In this document: one piece after another, positions 2,770-16,817 of the stretch
Position numbering within the stretch: the stretch's first letter is position 1
Layout of the letters: the number at the start of each line of letters is the position of its first letter
DNA from: Nitrospinota bacterium
Lineage (GTDB): Bacteria; UBA8248
Direction: 5' to 3'
Length of the DNA: 16,817 nucleotides
Assembly: GCA_036231405.1 (NCBI GenBank)
Contig: JAZAHK010000021.1
Coordinates: 1-16,817 of the forward strand
Notes under the pieces: model-generated
Databases searched by the model: none
The model's input: the letters and a program-made list of their open reading frames with translations, nothing else
Told to the model about the DNA's origin: nothing
Made by a program: the position numbers and the translations under genes

Positions 2770-3300
2770 TTAAAATGTTTCAAAAATAGTGTCTAACAAT
2801 TCCAAAGAAAAATTTTCTGCGCCCTTTTCGACCGCATCATTTCTATTTTTATCGCTTTCATCTACTTTTGAAGATATTTCAAATTCTATTTCTGTTTCTA
2901 TTTTCTTGAACTGTAACCTATCCCCATTAGTCAGGTCTGACAACTCGTACTCGATCTTGACAAAAACTCTATACCTTTTCACTTGATCATCTTTACTAAA
3001 ACCAACAGGAATTAATTTGTATTCAATGATTTTCGCCTGAAGAGACACATTCGCTTTATTTTTATCTGCAGGCTTTAGCCTTCCATCCTTTAGAAAACTA
3101 TTCCTAACATTACGCGTAAAAATCTGAGATAGATTCGATTCACCAGATAGGTTTTTAAATTGAGAAACATAAACATAGTTTTTTCCAATCAAAAAATTTG
3201 GAATTTTAGTACCTTCCAAACTGTACCCACATGAATTCATGCAAAGAATTAAAAAAGGAAAAAAGAGTAAAAAGTAATTAAATTTATATCTTCTTATCAT
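2770..3300 (-). CDS. lptE: LPS assembly lipoprotein LptE
   Basis: Start reassigned to ATG at 3300 (176 aa). Basic N-terminus, hydrophobic core and lipobox-like MNS-C-GY followed by SLEG, matching the CG(F/Y)xL start of LptE. Directly upstream of holA. Confidence 0.82.
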   Translation of the reverse strand: MIRRYKFNYFLLFFPFLILCMNSCGYSLEGTKIPNFLIGKNYVYVSQFKNLSGESNLSQIFTRNVRNSFLKDGRLKPADKNKANVSLQAKIIEYKLIPVGFSKDDQVKRYRVFVKIEYELSDLTNGDRLQFKKIETEIEFEISSKVDESDKNRNDAVEKGAENFSLELLDTIFETF

Positions 3301-3310
3301 GGATTTTTTT

Positions 3311-3784
3311 TTAAGCTGTAATTTTTTCACGAAAAATTTTATCCAATATACCATTAATGAAAGAAGGGGTTTTTTTATCTTCCTCGTAAAGCTTTGATAG
3401 TGCAACGGATTCATCTATTACTACTTTTGGTGGAATATCCTTAAAATAGATAAATTGGCAAATTCCTAATCGTAAAATGCAAAGAGTTATTATGTCGATT
3501 CTTTCTAAACGTCGATTTTTACTGTATTTTTCAATATTAAAGTCTATATCTTCTTTATTTTCATATATTTTACAAATAAGACTTAAAGCAAATTCTCTAC
3601 TTTTATTTAACTTCCGATTTTTGGTATCATATGGATGAATTTTTTCATAATCTTTAATTAAATCATTTATTGATGTAACCTTTAATTTTTTATCAGAAAA
3701 AGCATTCTCTATAAAATACAATATTCTCAATGCTTCTTCTCTTCCGCTACTCCTTTGACCTTTAATCATTTTTTTTACTGCCAT
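3311..3784 (-). CDS. nusB: Transcription antitermination factor NusB
   Basis: REEALRILY, ILRLG, IPPKVVIDESVALSK and FINGILD motifs; follows ribH with a 10-bp overlap. Alternative start ATG at 3769. Confidence 0.93.
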   Translation of the reverse strand: MAVKKMIKGQRSSGREEALRILYFIENAFSDKKLKVTSINDLIKDYEKIHPYDTKNRKLNKSREFALSLICKIYENKEDIDFNIEKYSKNRRLERIDIITLCILRLGICQFIYFKDIPPKVVIDESVALSKLYEEDKKTPSFINGILDKIFREKITA

Positions 3785-7291: not shown

Positions 7292-9985
7292 TTAGAGAGT
7301 TAGATTAGTTTGCTTGCCAACTATATGATGATCTCCAAGCTTTTCATAAGCACCGTGAGTTAAAGTAGCTTGAGCAGCAGCCAGTCTTGCGATCGGAGCC
7401 CTATATGGGGCACATGACACATAATCCATTTTTATGATATGACAAAATTCAACAGAACTTGGCTCCCCTCCGTGTTCTCCACAAATACCGACTTCGAGAT
7501 TTGGCCTGTTTTTCCTTCCGCGTTCAACACCTATTTTCACCATTTCTCCAACCCCGTCCCTGTCTATTGCTACGAATGGGTCATGTGCAATAAGACCTTT
7601 ATCTAAATACTCTGGAAGTATTTTCCCAGAATCATCTCTACTAAGACCGTATGTCAACTGTGTAAGATCATTCGTCCCGAAACTAAAAAATTGTGCTTCT
7701 TTGGATATCTCTTCAGCTAAAAGACATGTTCTCGGAATTTCAACCATTGTACCTACGAGATAATTAACTTGAATTTTTTGTTCTGCTATTACTTCTTTAG
7801 CAACTTCATGTGCAATATCATTATTGAACTCCCATTCTTTCACACCAGAAGTTAATGGAATCATTATTTCCGGGAACACATCTATTCCCTGTCTTTTCAT
7901 ATGGCAAGCTGCCTCTATAATAGCCCTAACTTGCATTTTTGAAATTTCAGGATATGTTACCGCTAACCTACAACCTCTATGTCCTAACATTGGGTTTTGT
8001 TCTTTATGATCTTCTGTGGATTTAGCTACCATAGACACTTCCTTAACTAAAATCTGTGCAGTCTCAGCTATATCTTTTTCCGTTTTAGGAAGAAATTCGT
8101 GTAGTGGAGGATCGAGCAATCTTATGGTTACCGGTCTATCCTTCATAATTTCAAAAATTTCTATAAAATCAGCCCTTTGTATAGGGAGAAGATAATCGAG
8201 CGCTTTTTTTCTTTCCTCAAGACCATTTGCCAAAATCATAGCCCTTATATAATTAATTCGATCCCCTTCGAAAAACATATGTTCAGTTCTACATAAGCCA
8301 ATACCTTCACAACCAAATTTTAATGCCGCTTTACTATCTTCTTTCGTATCTGCATTTGCCCTAACACCAAGAGTCCTCACATCGTCAGCCCAATGCATAA
8401 ATTGCACATAATCTTTATTATTTTCAAGATCTGGCATTTTTAGTTTTTTCTCACCAGAAATCACAAGACCATTGTTTCCATCCAATGAGATCCATTGGCC
8501 AGCAGAAAGTATTTTCCCATCTATTTCAATTACCTGTTCTTCTTCCTTAACATCTATAGACGCACATCCTGCAACACAACATTTCCCCATTTGCCTAGCG
8601 ACTACTGCTGCATGAGATGTCAAACCACCTCTTGCGGTAAGAATACCTTCTGAGACTTTCATCCCACCAATATCTTCAGGACTTGTTTCTTGTCTAACAA
8701 GAATAACCTTTTCTCCTAAAGCAGCCTGTGCTTCAGCGGACGCAGCCGTAAAAACAATCTTACCGACAGCACCACCTGGCGATGCTGCAAGTCCTGTTGC
8801 TAAAACATCCAATTCTTGATCAGGATCTATCATAGGAAAAAGCAATTGATCTAAAAGATTAGCATCTACTTTCAATAAAGCGCTTTCTTTATTTATAAGC
8901 CCTTCATTTACCATTTCTACGGCAATTCTTATAGCAGAAGTTCCTGTTCTCTTTGCATTCCTTGTCTGCAGCATAAAAAGTGCACCATTTTGAATCGTAA
9001 ATTCCATATCCTGCATATCTTGGTAATGCCTCTCAAGCTTTTCAGATATTTCAATAAAGCTTGCATAACAATCAGGCATTTTTTTATGAAGTACTGTAAT
9101 TTTTTCTGGTGTCCTTACTCCAGCTACGACATCTTCGCCTTGTGCGTTAAAAAGGACTTCCCCATATAGTTTTTTTTCTCCTGTCGATGGATTGCGCGAA
9201 AAAGCAACGCCAGTTCCACAATCATCTCCCATATTTCCAAAAACCATGCATTGCACATTTACAGCTGTGCCCCATTCATCTGGAATATTATAAATACGTC
9301 TATACGCAAATGCTCTTTCATTATTCCAAGATTTGAAAACTGCTTCTATTGCTAGTTTAAGTTGTTGTTCTGGATCATCTGGGAAAATTTTACCATAATT
9401 TTTTCTTACTATTTTTTTATACTGAACTATCAACTCAAAAAGATCATCCTCATTGAGATCTACGTCCTCATTAGCGCCTTTATTGTTTTTCATTTCTTCA
9501 AGTTTTTTTTCAAATTTAGATGATTGAATCCCAAGAACAACATTGCCAAACATCTGTATAAATCTTCTATAACTATCATAAGCGAAACGAGCATTGTTTG
9601 TTTGTTTTGCAACGGCTTGAACTGTTTGATCGTTCATTCCTAAGTTGAGGACCGTATCCATCATTCCGGGCATTGAAGTCCTTGCGCCAGAACGTACACT
9701 TAATAGCAGAGGTTTATCTCCTCCACCAAGTTTCATGTCCATTAATTTTTCTAAACGTTGGATGCCTGCAAGAATGTCTTTCCATAGAGATTCAGAAATC
9801 TCTTCTTTATTCAAATAATCTATACAAACCTCTGTGCTAATAGTAAAACCTGGTGGGACTGGAATGCCTAAATTTGACATCTCTGCCAAATTAGCCCCTT
9901 TCCCTCCAAGTAAATGGGTTAGAGATGAGTTCCCATCAGTTTGATCAGAACCAAATGCATAGAGTAATTTTTCAGTTTCTGGCAT
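7292..9985 (-). CDS. ppdK: Pyruvate, phosphate dikinase
   Basis: LLGGKGANLAEM, LLSVRSGA, MPGMMDTVLNLG, GGLTSHAAVVAR (phospho-His), GIGLCRTEHMF, FSFGTNDLTQ and GICGEHGG motifs. ATG 9985 preferred over GTG 9988 on spacing to the AAGGA SD (7 vs 4 nt). Confidence 0.98.
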   Translation of the reverse strand: MPETEKLLYAFGSDQTDGNSSLTHLLGGKGANLAEMSNLGIPVPPGFTISTEVCIDYLNKEEISESLWKDILAGIQRLEKLMDMKLGGGDKPLLLSVRSGARTSMPGMMDTVLNLGMNDQTVQAVAKQTNNARFAYDSYRRFIQMFGNVVLGIQSSKFEKKLEEMKNNKGANEDVDLNEDDLFELIVQYKKIVRKNYGKIFPDDPEQQLKLAIEAVFKSWNNERAFAYRRIYNIPDEWGTAVNVQCMVFGNMGDDCGTGVAFSRNPSTGEKKLYGEVLFNAQGEDVVAGVRTPEKITVLHKKMPDCYASFIEISEKLERHYQDMQDMEFTIQNGALFMLQTRNAKRTGTSAIRIAVEMVNEGLINKESALLKVDANLLDQLLFPMIDPDQELDVLATGLAASPGGAVGKIVFTAASAEAQAALGEKVILVRQETSPEDIGGMKVSEGILTARGGLTSHAAVVARQMGKCCVAGCASIDVKEEEQVIEIDGKILSAGQWISLDGNNGLVISGEKKLKMPDLENNKDYVQFMHWADDVRTLGVRANADTKEDSKAALKFGCEGIGLCRTEHMFFEGDRINYIRAMILANGLEERKKALDYLLPIQRADFIEIFEIMKDRPVTIRLLDPPLHEFLPKTEKDIAETAQILVKEVSMVAKSTEDHKEQNPMLGHRGCRLAVTYPEISKMQVRAIIEAACHMKRQGIDVFPEIMIPLTSGVKEWEFNNDIAHEVAKEVIAEQKIQVNYLVGTMVEIPRTCLLAEEISKEAQFFSFGTNDLTQLTYGLSRDDSGKILPEYLDKGLIAHDPFVAIDRDGVGEMVKIGVERGRKNRPNLEVGICGEHGGEPSSVEFCHIIKMDYVSCAPYRAPIARLAAAQATLTHGAYEKLGDHHIVGKQTNLTL

Positions 9986-10033
9986 CACAAGTTCCTTTAT
10001 CTATGGGCTGACTATCACGTATAGGACTCGTTT

Positions 10034-10061
10034 ATATTACTTAATTATTGATTTTTGTAAA
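10034..10061 (-). promoter_or_regulatory. Weak candidate internal promoter upstream of ppdK
   Basis: TTTACA (10061-10056), 16 nt, TAATAT (10039-10034) at the start of the largest gap in the minus-strand run. Could arise by chance in AT-rich DNA. Confidence 0.25.
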
Positions 10062-12263
10062 ATCACAAATCAAGGAAAAAAATCTTCTTATAACTCTTAA
10101 CATAACAATTCTGTTTTCCCTAATTGTCTTATCTTCTTCCATGATTAACACATTATCAAAAAAATTATCAATTGGAATTATGAGCGTGCACATGGTTTCA
10201 TATATTTTTTTAAATTCTTCTTTAATCTGAGGAACCGAACAAATCTTAGAAGATTGAAAGGCATCTAAGATAGAAATAGATTTTTGAATGGATACATCTA
10301 ATTCATTATACAAGGACCGTTCTTCTTCATTAACGAAAAGAGAACTATCTATTTTTTCAAATCCAAAATCATTACCCTCTATTTCTTTAGAAAGAAAGGC
10401 GTCTTTTTTTGTTATATTAAAAACTCTTTTATATATTGAAGCGCATCCATTAAAATCCTCTTCATCAACAATTTCTTGAACTAGTTTCAATTTTGCCAAA
10501 GCCTCTGTAGGTAATTGCCATGTTCGACCTTTTGACGCTACCAAAACAGATTCAATCAAATCAGATCTGTTTGAATTTTGCATCAAATAAGCATGGACTC
10601 TATTTTCAAAAAAATTATGTAATCTATCCAATATTTGATCTTTATCCTTACTAAAAATATCACCAAAAATGGCAAGGGATTTTTCTATCGTCTCAGACAA
10701 ATTTAATTTCATCCCAGTAGAAGAGAGAATTTTGAAAATACCACTTGTTGTTCTTCTCAAAGCATATGGATCTTCGGAACCTTTAGGGACATAATTCAAT
10801 CCAATTAACCCAATGACTGTATCAAATCTATCAGAAAGAGAGACTATAGAACCTTCTAAAGTAGAAGGTACAGGATCCCCCTCACGAACAGGGAGATAAT
10901 GCTCATATATAGCACTTGAAATTTTTTTATTTTTCCCTTGAATTTCTGCGAAATATTTTCCAATTACACCTTGGAGTTCAGGGAATTCATATACCATGCC
11001 ACTTGTAAGATCAGCTTTACATAAATTTGAAATCTCCATAACATTTTTGTGCATTTCTTTTTCTTGAGGATAAAATTCTTTGCAAATATTCGAACTTATT
11101 AGAGAAAATCGATGAACTTTCTCCATACTTGTCCCTAATTTTGGATGGTATATAACATCTTTTAATTTTTTCGACATATCCTCTAGTGATACAGTAAGAT
11201 CTTTTTCCCAATAAAATTCGGCATCTTCCAGTCTTGCCTGGACTACACGTTCATATCCATTTCTTATGACTCCCATGTCCTCTGTTTCAATATTACTTAC
11301 AGCAACAAACTTCGCTTTAATATTCCCAGTATTTTCATCCCTCAAAGCAAAAAAACGTTGATTACTTTCCAGAGTATTGACAATAACTTCTTCGGGTATT
11401 TCCAAGTACTTTTCATCAAAATTACATTGAATAATTTTTGGCCATTCAACTAAATTGGAAACCTTCTCTACTAAAAATTGAAAACCTTCATCATCCAACG
11501 CTGGAACAGTACCTAATTCAAGAGCAGCCTTTAAAACCTCTTCTTTTATAAATTGGAAACGACTTTCAGACTTCTCTTTAGCACTTATAATATTCACAAA
11601 ATTTTTGTTTAATTTCTCAATATAATCTTCAAAATTCTTGACTTCAATTGGTCCATTAGACAAAAACCTATGTCCATATGTAAAATTATTAAATTCAGGT
11701 AGAAGTGAAGCAATTTCTTTATGTTCTTTTAACTTCAATTCCAAAGGAATCACTTCCCCTCCATACAAAGCTAAAATCCAACGTATCGGCCTGACGAAGT
11801 AGAAATTTCCTTTCTGCCAACGCATCGATTTAGGTGATGACAAAGTTGAAATTATCGAAATTAAAGAAGAAGAAAGAACTTCGATTGTTTCACTGCTATC
11901 ATGTGAATGTTCCAGAAACAATCTTTCTCCCTTAGGAGTTTCTTTTTTTTTCAAATCAGATAACTCCATTTGATTCTTTTTCAAGAAGGAAAGAGTAGCT
12001 TTAGTAGGTTCTCCATCAACATCAAAACCTATCCTGGCAGGAGGTCCCAAAATTTCTTCCGTATATGGCTCCTGTGATTCGTCTATGTTTCTGACATGAG
12101 CAACCAGTCTTCTGGGAGTTCCACATACTATAACCTCTGAAAATCGAATACGAGATTCCGACAAAATATTTCTTGTGTTTATCTCTAATTGAGACAAAAG
12201 ATCAGAAAGATATGTAGAAGGAATTTCCTCTGTTCCGATTTCAAACAACAAATCTTTAGGCAA
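10041..12263 (-). CDS. glyS: Glycine--tRNA ligase beta subunit
   Basis: LLFEIGTEEIP, TPRRL, GPP, KSMRW, FVRPIRW, TYGHRF, LVEWP, GYERVVQARLEDAEFYW, KADL, MVYEFPELQG, EHYLP, GSEDPYALRR and FFDNVLIM..IRENR motifs. TTG start with AAGGAG SD. Confidence 0.98.
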   Translation of the reverse strand: MPKDLLFEIGTEEIPSTYLSDLLSQLEINTRNILSESRIRFSEVIVCGTPRRLVAHVRNIDESQEPYTEEILGPPARIGFDVDGEPTKATLSFLKKNQMELSDLKKKETPKGERLFLEHSHDSSETIEVLSSSLISIISTLSSPKSMRWQKGNFYFVRPIRWILALYGGEVIPLELKLKEHKEIASLLPEFNNFTYGHRFLSNGPIEVKNFEDYIEKLNKNFVNIISAKEKSESRFQFIKEEVLKAALELGTVPALDDEGFQFLVEKVSNLVEWPKIIQCNFDEKYLEIPEEVIVNTLESNQRFFALRDENTGNIKAKFVAVSNIETEDMGVIRNGYERVVQARLEDAEFYWEKDLTVSLEDMSKKLKDVIYHPKLGTSMEKVHRFSLISSNICKEFYPQEKEMHKNVMEISNLCKADLTSGMVYEFPELQGVIGKYFAEIQGKNKKISSAIYEHYLPVREGDPVPSTLEGSIVSLSDRFDTVIGLIGLNYVPKGSEDPYALRRTTSGIFKILSSTGMKLNLSETIEKSLAIFGDIFSKDKDQILDRLHNFFENRVHAYLMQNSNRSDLIESVLVASKGRTWQLPTEALAKLKLVQEIVDEEDFNGCASIYKRVFNITKKDAFLSKEIEGNDFGFEKIDSSLFVNEEERSLYNELDVSIQKSISILDAFQSSKICSVPQIKEEFKKIYETMCTLIIPIDNFFDNVLIMEEDKTIRENRIVMLRVIRRFFSLICDFTKINN

Positions 12264-12287
12264 ATTTAACTCCTTGTATCAAGAAAA

Positions 12288-13232
12288 TCACTGAAAAAGT
12301 TCTTCATTGTTTTTCTTGAATTTTTCAAGCTCTTTATTTCTTTTGTCGACATCAACAATAAGTGGAAACCCCATTTCAAACCTCGATTTTAAATATGACT
12401 CTGCACATGCTTTAGCCATTTTACGAATCCTCAATATATATCTTGCCCTTTCACTAACGCTGATAGCACCTCTAGCATCCAAAAGGTTAAAAAAGTGAGA
12501 ACACTTCAGAGTAAAATCATAAGCTGGGAAAGATAAATTTTTTTCAGTTAGCCTCAAACCTTCCACTTCACACATATTAAACATCTGCAACAACATCTCT
12601 ATATTAGCGTGATCGAAATTAAATTTACTAAACTCAATTTCTGTCTGCATATGAACATCTCTATAAGTAATTTTATCACCATTCTTATCTACCCAAATCA
12701 GATCAAAGACATTGTCCACTCCTTGCAAATACATTGCTATTCTTTCAATTCCGTAAGTAATCTCAGCAGATATATATTCTAGATCTAAACCACCAGCTTG
12801 CTGAAAATAAGTAAATTGAGTAACTTCCATGCCATCCAACCAGACTTCCCATCCCAAACCCCATGCCCCAAGATTAGGAGATTCCCAATCATCCTCTACA
12901 AAACGAATATCGTGTTGAGAAGTATCAATACCCAAGAACTCCAAACTGTTGAGATACAAATCCTGAACATCAGAGGGTGATGGTTTTAGTATTACTTGGT
13001 ATTGATAGTAATGTTGAAGCCTATTTGGATTTTCTCCGTACCTGCCATCAGTAGGTCTTCTGCTTGGTTCAACATATGCTACATCCCAAGGTTCTGGACC
13101 TAAAACTCTTAAGAAAGTAGCAGGATTCATCGTTCCTGCACCCACTTCTATATCGTAAGGCTGCTGGATCAAACAACCATGTTTTGACCAAAACTCTTCT
13201 AGCTTAAGAAAAATTTCCTGAAAAGTAATCAC
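12288..13232 (-). CDS. glyQ: Glycine--tRNA ligase alpha subunit
   Basis: [76 protein letters not shown] and [17 protein letters not shown] motifs. GTG start. Confidence 0.99.
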
Positions 13233-13235
13233 AGC

Positions 13236-14444
13236 CTACTCAATGAACTCTTGATGTAAAAGTTTGACAGCAGCATCAGAATGCTTTGAATCAATTATGA
13301 CTGAAATTGAGATCTCAGAAGTAGAGATCATTAGAATATTTATAGTAGATTCAGACAGAGCAGAAAAAACTCTCGCAGCAACACCTGTCTGACTTTTCAT
13401 TCCGATACCAACTACGGATACTTTAGCAATTTCATCATTTCTTATAATTTCAATATCTCCAAGAACGGACTTAAGATCTTGAATAATTCTTTCCGCATCT
13501 TTTGCAAAATCACGGTTAACCGTAATAGAAATATCAGCGTACCCGTTTTCTCCAACATTCTGAACTATCATATCTATCATGATGGAGTTCTCTGCTAATT
13601 TTCCAAACAATTTTGATGCTATTCCTGGTTTGTCTGGTACATTCAATACTGTCAACTTAGATTGTTTCTCGTCACAATTCACCCCACTAACAGCTGGAGC
13701 TTCTAAAAATTCATCTTCAGGTTTAATCAAAGTACCTTCTCCTTCTCCAAATGAAGATCTTACAACTAAAGGTAATTCATACTTGGCTGCCAAATCTACT
13801 GCTCTGGGCTGTAAAATTTTTGCTCCTAGAACAGCCATCTCCATCATTTCGTCGAATGAAATCTCTTTAAGACAAATAGATTTTTCGACAATTCTAGGAT
13901 CTGCAGTATAAACCCCATCTACATCAGTGTATATCTCACATAAATCTGCTTTTAAAGCTGAAGCTAATGCGACGGCTGTAAGATCCGACCCTCCTCGTCC
14001 TAAAGTTGTTTCTTCATTAAATTCATCTACACCTTGAAACCCAGCAGCCACAACAATTCTGCCCAGTTCTAATTCTTTTATTATCCTATCTGGTCTGATA
14101 GTCCTAACTCTAGCATGCAAATGTTCTCCATCGGTCATGATGCCAGCCTGACCTCCGGTTAAAGAAATTGAAGAAAACCCAAGGGAATTTATTGCAATGG
14201 ATAACAAAGAACTTGAAATTCTTTCACCACTAGTTAAGAGTAAATCCATTTCTCTTTTCTGAGGATTCTCACTTAAAGCACCAGCCATATCAATAAGACG
14301 ATCTGTTTCTCCGCCCATAGCGCTTACAACCACAACAATTTGATCCCATTTTTTCTTTTGAGAGACAACGCGCTTAGCTACTGCTTCAAGACGGTCAATA
14401 TCTCCAACCGATGTGCCTCCAAATTTTTGAACTACCAAACTCAT
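13236..14444 (-). CDS. lysC: Aspartate kinase (monofunctional, two C-terminal ACT domains)
   Basis: VQKFGGTSVG, VVVVSAMG, TLGRGGSDLTA, IYTDVDGVYTADPR, VPDKPGIA, KVSVVGIGM and MISTSEISIS motifs. Perfect AGGAGGT SD at 14455-14449. Confidence 0.98.
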   Translation of the reverse strand: MSLVVQKFGGTSVGDIDRLEAVAKRVVSQKKKWDQIVVVVSAMGGETDRLIDMAGALSENPQKREMDLLLTSGERISSSLLSIAINSLGFSSISLTGGQAGIMTDGEHLHARVRTIRPDRIIKELELGRIVVAAGFQGVDEFNEETTLGRGGSDLTAVALASALKADLCEIYTDVDGVYTADPRIVEKSICLKEISFDEMMEMAVLGAKILQPRAVDLAAKYELPLVVRSSFGEGEGTLIKPEDEFLEAPAVSGVNCDEKQSKLTVLNVPDKPGIASKLFGKLAENSIMIDMIVQNVGENGYADISITVNRDFAKDAERIIQDLKSVLGDIEIIRNDEIAKVSVVGIGMKSQTGVAARVFSALSESTINILMISTSEISISVIIDSKHSDAAVKLLHQEFIE

Positions 14445-14461
14445 TACGACCTCCTGAAAAG

Positions 14462-15691
14462 CTAACTTGCAAACACTTTCGAACGTAAAATAATAGGATT
14501 AACAGTTCTTCTTTGATTAAATTTCTTTTCAATAAATCTAGAACAGCTTGGTTCGGGTGGCGATATTGCATTAGAAATGAAACAAAGTAAATCAAAAATT
14601 GTGAATTTTCTACGAGGCAAATAAAATTTACCTTTCTCTATTTCAGTTAGAAGGAAAGAATATCCTTTTTTACCTAGAGAATTTTTATTATATGGATAAT
14701 TAAAAAGAAATAGAACTTTCGCACTTTCTTTGTTTAAGAGGTGTGTTAATTGCAGTATTTCATTATCTAATTTCTGTATTCTATCTACCTTCTCAAATGA
14801 ATCAAATTGGTATTTACTATACTCTTTATCTATAAAAACAAATTCGTTTTCTTCAAATACCTCTTTAGCTTTAAAATCCTTCCATGGGAAAAATTGCATC
14901 CCAGTCATTTTCGAAAATCCTTTTAAAATTAAATTAGAAGAAACAACACTAGCAGACTTAAACTCGACTATATTTTCATTTTCACTCTGGTCTTCAACAA
15001 ATGCACCTTCATAAAGCCATATACTATTTGGAAAAAAGAAATCACTCCCAGACTTTTCAGTTATTAAAGGATGTTTTGACAACAACATTTGAGATTCATT
15101 CATGATATACATAAATCTTTTAGATTGTTCCTTTATTTGAGGAGTACCGTCAATTTCTCTGCCAATGTTCTCGTATGGAGATTTAAATTGTTTAAAGGAA
15201 ACAGAATCTTTCTCTAATTTTTCTCTTCTATATATAAAAACTGAATCTCCTTCAGAATTTGTCTTCAAAAAAAAGTATTCGTCTCTTTTTTTAAAAAGAT
15301 TAGCATTCAAGAATTCTGTGAGTTCTTGCTTATCTTCAACAGAAAGACTTGACCCTGATGGGTCAACTATAGAAAGGCTCTTTGTTGTAGGTTTGAGCGT
15401 AACAAAATTATTTTTAAAAACGATATCATTTCTATTTAATTCACATTCTAATCCCTCAGCAAGTTGAACAGAGGAATGTTGAAAATTTTTATAGCCAAAC
15501 ATTAAGGACATCAAATGAGTGACTAAAAAAGAATCATCAATATTAGGAACTGAAAAAGAACCACTAAAAGAACGAGAATAAAGATGGTCTAGATGAGGAG
15601 TGCTAGCCACTTCTAGAGGTGTACGGTCTTCTAGAGAATCCTCACTTATATCGAATACTGATCCAAGATGAAAAACAATAACCTTCTTCAT
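14462..15691 (-). CDS. Degenerate ApgM-family protein (cofactor-independent phosphoglycerate mutase / proposed homoserine kinase-like), catalytic residues apparently lost
   Basis: 409 aa intact ORF. Scaffold motifs match ApgM in order: RTPLEVASTPHLD, FGY, DIVFKNNFVTL, SQMLLSKHP, PNSIWL, VVSSNLILKG, EFVFI, KVDRIQKLD. Located between hom and lysC. Metal-binding and nucleophile motifs are absent. Confidence 0.8.
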   Translation of the reverse strand: MKKVIVFHLGSVFDISEDSLEDRTPLEVASTPHLDHLYSRSFSGSFSVPNIDDSFLVTHLMSLMFGYKNFQHSSVQLAEGLECELNRNDIVFKNNFVTLKPTTKSLSIVDPSGSSLSVEDKQELTEFLNANLFKKRDEYFFLKTNSEGDSVFIYRREKLEKDSVSFKQFKSPYENIGREIDGTPQIKEQSKRFMYIMNESQMLLSKHPLITEKSGSDFFFPNSIWLYEGAFVEDQSENENIVEFKSASVVSSNLILKGFSKMTGMQFFPWKDFKAKEVFEENEFVFIDKEYSKYQFDSFEKVDRIQKLDNEILQLTHLLNKESAKVLFLFNYPYNKNSLGKKGYSFLLTEIEKGKFYLPRRKFTIFDLLCFISNAISPPEPSCSRFIEKKFNQRRTVNPIILRSKVFAS

Positions 15692-16817
15692 TTAACCTTC
15701 GCGAAAACGGGCATCGTTAGATTCAACTCTTATAATTGAATATTCAGTATTAACAACTTTCAGTTTCATGATATTCATTAATGATTCGCTCATATCTTTT
15801 TCAATTGCCTTATGTGTCATGATTATTAACGGAACGTAACCTTCAGTTAAAGCTTTTCCTTTCTGCAATACTGTCTCAATACTTATATTTTTTTCACTGA
15901 ACAAGCCTGTAATTTCACTAAGCACCCCAGGACTATCTAAAACAGAAAGTCTGAGATAGAACTTTGTAGAGTTCAACTCACTATCCAAAACCTTTAAGGT
16001 CTTTCTGTAGTTTGGTAAAAAAGATGCAGCAGGCACTCTGGAGTTAGTGCCCAAAAGCTTATTTCTAGCCAATTCTATAATATCTGAAACGACGGCACTT
16101 GCAGTCGGGTCCGCACCTGCACCTCTACCAATGAAGACTTGACGTCCTGCATAAGCAGCAGTGACACTAACCGCATTTAAAACCCCGTTTACCTGGGCAA
16201 TAGGATTTTCATTTGGTAATAAAGCAGGGTGAACCCTTACATCCAACCCTTGTTCTGTTTCTTTTGCAATAGCAATGAGTTTAATCCTATAACCCAATTC
16301 AGTTGCATATTGAATATCAAAAGAATCAATATTTCTAATACCTTCAACAGTAAAAGAATCAATGCCAACTGGACTGCCAAAAGCGATATTCGCAAGAATA
16401 GCAATTTTATGAGCAGAATCTATCCCATCTATATCAAACGACGGGTCAGCTTCCGCATAACCTAATTTCTGAGCGTTCTCTAAAGTTGACGAAAAGTCCA
16501 CGTTATTTTCGGTCATTTCAGTCAGAATATAATTTGATGTCCCATTTAAAATTCCAGTAATTTCTCTGATTTTGTCTGAGGCAAATGATTCACGAATATT
16601 TCTTACAATTGGAATAGAACCAGCAATAGAAGCCTCAAATCCAATTGGGCAATCTGCTTTTACAGATGCACTAAAGATTTCCTCACCGTGCACTGCAAGA
16701 ACTGCTTTATTAGCAGTAACGACTGGTTTTCTAAAATCAAAACATTTAAGTAAATATTTTCTAGCATCCTCTAATCCACCAATCAATTCTGCGACTATGT
16801 CAATGTTGGGATCTTCT
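15692..16817 (-). CDS. hom: Homoserine dehydrogenase with C-terminal ACT domain, 5' end outside the window
   Basis: Frame is open to the window edge (EDPNIDIVAELIGG), so 16786 is not the true start. VVTANKA, FEASIAGSIP, GILNGTSNYIL, LGYAEADPSFDIDGIDSAHK and GRGAGADPTASAVVSDI motifs; ACT domain begins YLRLSVLDSPGVLSEI. Confidence 0.98.
   Translation of the reverse strand, partial: EDPNIDIVAELIGGLEDARKYLLKCFDFRKPVVTANKAVLAVHGEEIFSASVKADCPIGFEASIAGSIPIVRNIRESFASDKIREITGILNGTSNYILTEMTENNVDFSSTLENAQKLGYAEADPSFDIDGIDSAHKIAILANIAFGSPVGIDSFTVEGIRNIDSFDIQYATELGYRIKLIAIAKETEQGLDVRVHPALLPNENPIAQVNGVLNAVSVTAAYAGRQVFIGRGAGADPTASAVVSDIIELARNKLLGTNSRVPAASFLPNYRKTLKVLDSELNSTKFYLRLSVLDSPGVLSEITGLFSEKNISIETVLQKGKALTEGYVPLIIMTHKAIEKDMSESLMNIMKLKVVNTEYSIIRVESNDARFREG

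Follow-up and report, generated by a model that had tools for sequence, protein, structure and literature searches.

We analysed a 16,817-nucleotide stretch of DNA from a Nitrospinota bacterium, a marine member of the Nitrospinaceae (contig JAZAHK010000021.1; hereafter the window). Between the genes for homoserine dehydrogenase (hom) and aspartate kinase (lysC) lies a gene for a 409-amino acid protein, named X here, that derives from the HomK/ApgM family. X has lost all seven catalytic residues: the nucleophile and every metal ligand. The gene is clearly under purifying selection, which is looser than that on hom and lysC. The status of X as a pseudoenzyme is well supported, as loss of the catalytic residues coincides with purifying selection in 6/6 pairs and among six full-length orthologues. 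We consider it probable that X is non-catalytic for phosphotransfer. The explanation that we narrowly favour is that X is a HomK-derived pseudoenzyme made with Hom, probably with an amino acid-binding or regulatory function. More tentatively, X may have a specific partner role with aspartate-family enzymes.

Homology and catalytic site of X

The open reading frame (ORF) of X runs uninterrupted through 409 codons, beginning with ATG and ending with TAG. X is a true homologue of the group comprising archaeal-type cofactor-independent phosphoglycerate mutase (iPGM) and HomK (TIGR02535). Neither this homology nor the fold is in doubt, because profile, hhalign, AF2 and Foldseek matches support both. 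The Pfam family PF10143 (PhosphMutase) matches residues 74-208 with E 2.8e-10 (40.8 bits; cut-off 21.5 bits). The best NCBIfam match is TIGR00306 (apgM; E 7.6e-25), where 87.7 bits falls below the 320-bit cut-off. The match to TIGR02535 ("proposed homoserine kinase") covers residues 13-267 only (E 2e-16; 59.8 bits versus a cut-off of 446.3). PF01676 (Metalloenzyme) gave no match to X at E <= 1; the intact relative P0039 matches this family with E 1.9e-43.

Comparisons of profiles and structures gave the same answer. Aligned by hhalign with a profile of 26 intact relatives, X scored a probability of 99.87 and E 1.2e-31 across 321 columns. A profile built from X plus five close relatives, together called the window family below, matched the P. 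horikoshii iPGM structure 2zkt (E 8.8e-5). An AF2 model built from a 92-sequence alignment had a predicted local distance difference test (pLDDT) score of 88.6 and a predicted template modelling (pTM) score of 0.90. This superseded a poor model from a 6-sequence alignment (pLDDT 48.2). Foldseek matched the better model to the archaeal iPGM structures 3idd, 3kd8 and 2zkt, with E 7e-20 to 2e-18 and template modelling (TM) scores of 0.45-0.61. Such TM scores would be expected if the two domains were modelled more open or more closed than in the reference structures. No family or structure outside ApgM/HomK matched X in the Pfam, NCBIfam, profile and Foldseek comparisons. An earlier note on this DNA, made by eye, had called X a relative of ApgM and the "proposed homoserine kinase". 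PF10143, TIGR00306, TIGR02535, hhalign and Foldseek all bear this out; among the profiles that the note named as checks, PF01676 alone found nothing.

Catalytic columns were located using P0039 (TIGR02535, 535 bits) as a ruler. Seven columns were scored: D9, S55, D299, H303, D343, H344 and H353. These are the nucleophile Ser and six Asp/His metal ligands. In a 100-sequence MAFFT alignment the corresponding positions of X are G10, V57, K293, a gap, N331, Y332 and Lys, which is 0/7. A second alignment likewise gave 0/7. The hhalign and MAFFT results agree at D9, D299, H303 and D343/H344, and hhalign does not reach the last His. At the Ser column MAFFT places V57 and hhalign places H59, with T58 between; hence, the nucleophile loop is aligned only to within about two residues. 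All seven residues are missing from four of the six window-family proteins, X included. The other two keep one residue, an Asp at the P0039 D299 column. The codons concerned are as follows.

15662..15664, minus strand: codon of G10, aligned with the first metal-binding Asp (GDGM); Gly in 6/6 family members
15518..15523, minus strand: codons of V57 and T58, around the column of the nucleophile Ser, where PGS(D/E) becomes F55-L56-V57-T58
14813..14824, minus strand: codons of E290 to K293; E290 occupies the acidic specificity column and K293 that of a metal-binding Asp, with a 3-residue gap at the metal-binding His
14696..14701, minus strand: codons of N331 and Y332, replacing the Asp-His ligands of PDHxTP in the MAFFT and hhalign alignments

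The motifs around these positions are also altered. In X, PDH is F330-N331-Y332, PPHD is S171-P172-Y173-E174 and G-R-G is H72-S73-S74. EAxDExGH is reduced to E290..K293 and the gap over its His, and the GATG..DT segment is absent. Three Arg that are wholly or almost wholly conserved among intact relatives (P0039 R74, R94 and R143) are S73, K93 and S150. Position 58 is Thr or Ser in 6/6 family members, and a helix begins at residue 56 of the AF2 model. The earlier note had described a full-length ApgM/HomK relative without nucleophile or metal ligands, and both MAFFT and hhalign uphold this. Its individual losses at GDGM, PPHD (to SPYE), GATG..DT, PDH and the last His stand; its string for GRG was off by one and should read HSS. 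Its replacement of the PGSD loop by FLVT holds for F55-T58, with the exact Ser column differing by method.

The intact relatives indicate which enzyme X came from. In the work that names the family HomK, BT2402 and DET_RS08350 reportedly rescue E. coli from deletion of thrB (10.1101/2024.10.14.618325). HomK corresponds to TIGR02535 and ThrB2, and its reaction is proposed to involve two metals and a phospho-serine intermediate (10.1101/2024.10.14.618325). The earlier note, which knew TIGR02535 as a proposed missing homoserine kinase, identified the family correctly; the reported rescue makes the proposal stage outdated. The specificity residue is E299 in BT2402 and Lys in phosphoglycerate mutases (10.1101/2024.10.14.618325). 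The residue numbers printed for one BT2402 metal site (D274, H278 and H325; 10.1101/2024.10.14.618325, Appendix 3) do not fit the distances from the conserved motifs to D346/H347 and E299 in our alignments of relatives.

In X, the candidate specificity residue is E290, three residues before the metal-binding Asp column and Glu in 6/6 family members. Among intact rows, this column is Lys in 16/16 members of the clade holding the true ApgM P0025 and Glu in 35/60 overall. It is mostly Asp or Glu in the wider clade described below. On the tree, X falls with E/D-type relatives, outside the Lys-type ApgM clade. We infer that X descends from a HomK-type enzyme. If E290 corresponds to BT2402 E299, X would also keep the residue thought to hold the amino group of the substrate.

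X thus resembles HomK in its two-domain fold, clear homology, position beside hom and acidic specificity residue. It differs in its low TIGR02535 score, the absence of the Ser nucleophile, six ligands and GATG..DT, a 22-residue insert, and an inverted pattern of cap and core conservation. ApgM (TIGR00306; 2zkt, 3kd8, 3idd) shares PF10143 with X and provides its best structure and NCBIfam matches. However, X falls far short of the TIGR00306 cut-off, has no PF01676 match and 0/7 residues, and has Glu rather than Lys in the specificity column. Pseudokinases and pseudophosphatases keep their fold and remain under purifying selection, having lost catalytic residues. X is like such pseudoenzymes in these respects, and in having kept its pathway linkage.

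Selection, constraint and the wider clade

A search of 5.8 billion proteins identified five close relatives of X, with 94, 61, 56, 56 and 55% identity. All are 408-409 amino acids long, and 147 columns are invariant across them and X. DNA was compared between the window and three further genome loci (L001, L002 and L003), all from uncultured Nitrospinaceae metagenome-assembled genomes. None of the four DNA copies of X has a stop or frameshift. We calculated ratios of nonsynonymous to synonymous substitution rates (dN/dS, or omega). For X, NG86 values were 0.19-0.375 in six pairs, or about 0.2. The least saturated pair, L001-L003, had dN 0.13 and dS 0.63, with omega 0.21 by NG86 and 0.167 by YN00; this pair alone yielded a YN00 value. 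Because dS is near or above 1 in most pairs, absolute omega values are rough. The equivalent NG86 values were 0.07-0.096 for hom and 0.035-0.051 for lysC. The window and L001 are 56% identical in X, 77% in hom and 90% in lysC. The G+C content of X is 0.30 versus 0.37-0.38 for hom and lysC in the window, and 0.296 versus 0.374 and 0.382 at L001. The earlier note had argued for retention of the gene over decay, and named dN/dS in orthologues from related genomes as a check. Values well below 1 and the lack of disrupted copies support its argument.

Selection is not spread evenly along X. Two regions are of particular interest.

15050..15466, minus strand: cap domain (PhosphMutase, PF10143), residues 76-214; the most constrained part of X
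14546..14611, minus strand: clade-specific 22-residue insert, residues 361-382, RKFTIFDLLCFISNAISPPEPS; gaps in intact HomK/ApgM

We compared invariance in the window family with conservation in 15 intact relatives, scored at >= 70%, and calculated NG86 omega by region for six pairs. In the cap, the window family is invariant at 51% of columns and intact relatives are conserved at 14%; omega is 0.09-0.18. In the C-terminal half of the core (core-C, residues 215-360) both figures are 23%, and omega is 0.24-0.59. The cap is the lowest-omega region in five of the six pairs. It carries the motifs FKNNFVxLKPTxKSLSxxDP and QSKRFMYIMNESQMLxSKxP in the clade of X, and residues 189-203 are invariant in 6/6 family members. 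The forms NFVxLKPxxxS..DP and (R/K)RFxxIxN(D/E)SQMxLSxHP are common to X and the intermediate clade, and missing from intact relatives. The window family and the intermediate clade likewise have residues in the insert columns, where intact relatives have gaps. Ten insert residues (F366, D367, L368, L369, C370, S373, N374, A375, I376 and S377) are invariant in 6/6. We conclude that constraint has left the former catalytic core and now falls on the cap domain and the clade-specific C-terminal insert.

More distant relatives place these changes on a tree. HMMER found 122 proteins at E <= 0.001 among 1.84 billion representatives, four of them at E <= 1e-30. P0007, P0008, P0009 and P0011 score 175-218 bits against TIGR00306, between X and the intact enzymes. 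A search seeded with these four gave about twenty further relatives, of which those named belong to Candidatus Tectomicrobia or Nitrospinota. The wider clade comprises P0007-P0011, P0247-P0266 and the window family. IQ-TREE was run on 45 rows, with three fragments left out, and 27 rows form a clade with support 100/100. The first metal-binding Asp is present in 0/27; three further clade fragments do not cover this column. The window family is monophyletic (100/100), with a stem of 2.17 changes per column and end branches of 0.02-0.22. It is sister to P0008 (99/98) and forms the most diverged branch of the clade.

Like X, other members of the wider clade have lost the first Asp, and they carry the insert and two cap motifs, NFVxLKPxxxS and (R/K)RFxxIxN(D/E)SQM. 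They differ from X in being only 23-25% identical and in mostly keeping 1-3 of the seven residues; P0253 and P0266 keep none. P0259 and P0260, both on the tree, and the fragment P0268 have five Asp/His ligands and a Thr in the Ser column. This subgroup may still be an enzyme, possibly with another substrate. P0259 and P0260 are nested, not basal (92/96, not a starred branch). P0259 comes from a 2.84-Mb contig, and all three proteins have Arg in the specificity column (Glu in HomK, Lys in ApgM). Each catalytic column requires 3-6 changes on the tree. The clade-wide pattern points to one early event, in which the first Asp was probably lost and the insert gained, followed by repeated independent loss of the other residues.

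Linkage to hom and the proposed role of X

The gene for X sits in a compact gene string, in which we distinguish the following features.

15692..16816, minus strand: hom, homoserine dehydrogenase with a C-terminal ACT domain (PF00742, NF004976); the 5' end lies beyond the window edge
15689..15694, minus strand: abutting hom stop and X start (TAA, then ATG), with GAAGG 3 nt upstream of the stop
14462..15691, minus strand: X, HomK/ApgM-derived, with 0/7 catalytic residues, as judged by ORF, family scores, alignments, fold and selection
14445..14461, minus strand: X-lysC spacer of 17 bp, which holds AGGAGG
13236..14444, minus strand: lysC, monofunctional aspartate kinase with two ACT domains (NF005155)

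The neighbours were identified by PF00742 (E 2.4e-65) and NF004976 (449 bits) for hom, and by NF005155 (544 bits) for lysC. In the window the hom-X junction reads GAAGGTTAA followed directly by ATG. X is encoded adjacent to homoserine dehydrogenase in 4/4 loci (window, L001, L002 and L003), and in all four the TAA abuts the ATG. The order hom-X-lysC is found wherever the contig permits: complete at L001 and L002, and as far as X at L003. The intact 409-codon ORF, its abutment to hom and the 17 bp before lysC were all described accurately in the earlier note. HomK sits after hom in other bacteria (PMC9026213; 10.1101/2024.10.14.618325). In the wider clade, the longest contig of six members equals in length that of a Hom hit (4390, 21925, 3989, 10255, 4434 and 8590 bp). 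This suggests, indirectly, that the wider clade is, perhaps as a whole, hom-linked like the window family.

A mechanism can be proposed for a pseudoenzyme made with Hom. X would descend from HomK, which in many bacteria takes the place of ThrB as homoserine phosphotransferase. The two-metal phospho-serine chemistry of the superfamily is lost, and the folded two-domain protein is kept. X would be translated in step with Hom by coupled translation. Though unable to catalyse, it would most plausibly use the former cleft to bind a homoserine-type amino acid; E290, the acidic specificity residue, is retained. Such binding might tune or organise the neighbouring ACT-domain enzymes of the aspartate family. 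The clade-wide loss of the first Asp, followed by repeated decay of the other residues, suggests that the second role arose before catalysis was lost. The scaffold or allosteric role with Hom or LysC that the earlier note had raised would be consistent with the gene order, the exact junction in 4/4 loci and the constraint in the cap. A complex prediction for Hom and X (L001 proteins) gave a score of 0.00 and a mark of 0.32; this is no verdict, and speaks neither for nor against binding. A broader proposal, which we think unlikely, is that a phylum-wide, hom-coupled pseudo-HomK in Nitrospinota and Tectomicrobia has turned into a sensor of homoserine-type amino acids controlling Hom and/or aspartate kinase. 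In that case, these nitrite oxidisers, which are of global importance, would have to phosphorylate homoserine by another enzyme.

Several observations weigh against reading X as a pseudoenzyme coupled to Hom. T58 is within one residue of the nucleophile column, and so a migrated site may be conceivable. D14, D288, E290, D297 and D309 are invariant acidic residues of the family, from which a site could conceivably have been rebuilt. E290 was matched to E299 by motif spacing and the distribution of Glu and Lys rather than on the BT2402 sequence itself, and the match is indirect because the published D274, H278 and H325 misfit the motif spacing of the relatives. The dN of X is 2.4 to 5 times that of its neighbours; given this and its lower G+C content, the constraint on X is only moderate. 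Finally, the intact relatives sample more phyla than the dead clade does; this reduces their overall conservation and leaves the ranking of domains unaffected.

Four other explanations were weighed. First, X could have a structural or regulatory function with a partner from outside the aspartate pathway, the gene order being kept by a compact operon. The pseudoenzyme features of X would suit this equally, and the gene string mixes functions, since the unrelated glyQ, glyS and ppdK follow downstream in the same orientation. However, the acidic specificity residue is kept, hom and X abut in all four loci, and the matches of contig size suggest hom linkage across the wider clade. We regard an outside partner as rather improbable.

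Second, X might still form O-phosphohomoserine at a rebuilt site, with Thr58 as acceptor, new acidic metal holders or another donor, and so be a working homoserine kinase. X occupies the position of HomK after hom, as known from the cited work (PMC9026213; 10.1101/2024.10.14.618325), has E290 in the specificity column and is under purifying selection. Intact relatives accept Thr as nucleophile (pattern DTDHDHH), position 58 is Thr or Ser in every family member, and P0259, P0260 and P0268 of the same clade keep Thr and five ligands. Conversely, all six Asp/His ligands are gone from X, one by deletion. The Arg conserved in intact relatives have become Ser73, Lys93 and Ser150, and constraint on the protein is weakest in its former catalytic half. 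We know of no metal-free phosphotransferase in the alkaline-phosphatase superfamily. A rebuilt site seems to us less probable again than an outside partner.

Third, and with the same low probability as a rebuilt site, X could be a different enzyme, working through the conserved cap and the new insert; its location next to hom would then be purely historical. The new cap motifs, invariant at 189-203 and shared with the intermediate clade, and the low omega of the cap would be expected of such an enzyme. Yet no family or structure match beyond ApgM/HomK was found, and the hom-X junction is conserved to the base in 4/4 loci, which speaks for a functional tie to Hom. Last, a dying gene awaiting deletion would account for the faster change and lower G+C content of X and for its long stem branch, but is highly improbable, and simple decay was rejected, given omega of 0.17-0.375 rather than near 1, four intact DNA copies, six proteins of 408-409 amino acids at 55-61% identity, 147 invariant columns and an old clade spanning two phylum-level groups.

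Confirmation of HomK as a substitute for ThrB is recent, and homoserine kinase is still among the four steps most often seemingly missing in prototrophs (10.1101/2024.10.14.618325). Annotation tools that assign homoserine kinase to any ApgM-like gene beside hom would score the threonine pathway as complete in error, both in this Nitrospinaceae lineage and, probably, across much of Nitrospinota. X would also be a pseudoenzyme in core metabolism whose clade offers dated intermediates, from 5/7 to 0/7 catalytic residues. The literature searched described neither inactive forms of HomK or ApgM nor a homoserine kinase of Nitrospina, and the accessible portion of the HomK paper says nothing of inactive forms (10.1101/2024.10.14.618325).

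Neighbouring genes and other relatives

Every large ORF in the window but one is on the minus strand. Past lysC, the gene order is glyQ, glyS, ppdK, ribD, ribE, ribBA, ribH, nusB, an LptE-like gene, holA and murJ. The first three (window 7292-13232, minus strand) lie directly past lysC in the same orientation. At L001, ORFs at 8448-13217 match the window's glyQ-glyS-ppdK in order and lengths, a match by ORF layout alone. Upstream of hom, L001 encodes argS, a SPOR-domain gene, lipoyl synthase and a class I/II aminotransferase. The sole plus-strand gene of the window is rpsT, for ribosomal protein S20 (1472-1723; PF01649, E 1.2e-18), between holA and murJ. It is overlapped by a 91-amino acid minus-strand ORF with no family match. 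The LptE-like ORF (2770-3414, minus strand) overlaps the end of nusB (3311-3784, minus strand) by 104 bases. Its true start is probably further downstream because the Pfam match begins only at residue 81. Scanned for Rfam families and for tRNAs, the window gave no match to either.

Degenerate forms are also found elsewhere in the superfamily. Among 100 full-length relatives, a sample biased towards degenerate forms by the search profile, 35 keep no more than three of the seven catalytic residues. These fall in several separate clades, and starred branches force at least seven changes. Loss of catalysis may thus be general in the superfamily, and dead forms may be common. In the Atlas, clusters from Armatimonadota and Nitrospirota have PF10143 and little PF01676. 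An ApgM/HomK-like part also occurs in longer proteins, presumably fusions: P0024 (1101 amino acids), P0073 (1016 amino acids), P0040, P0046, P0099, P0103 and P0110. One Atlas cluster has such a part fused to a signal-peptidase-like domain.

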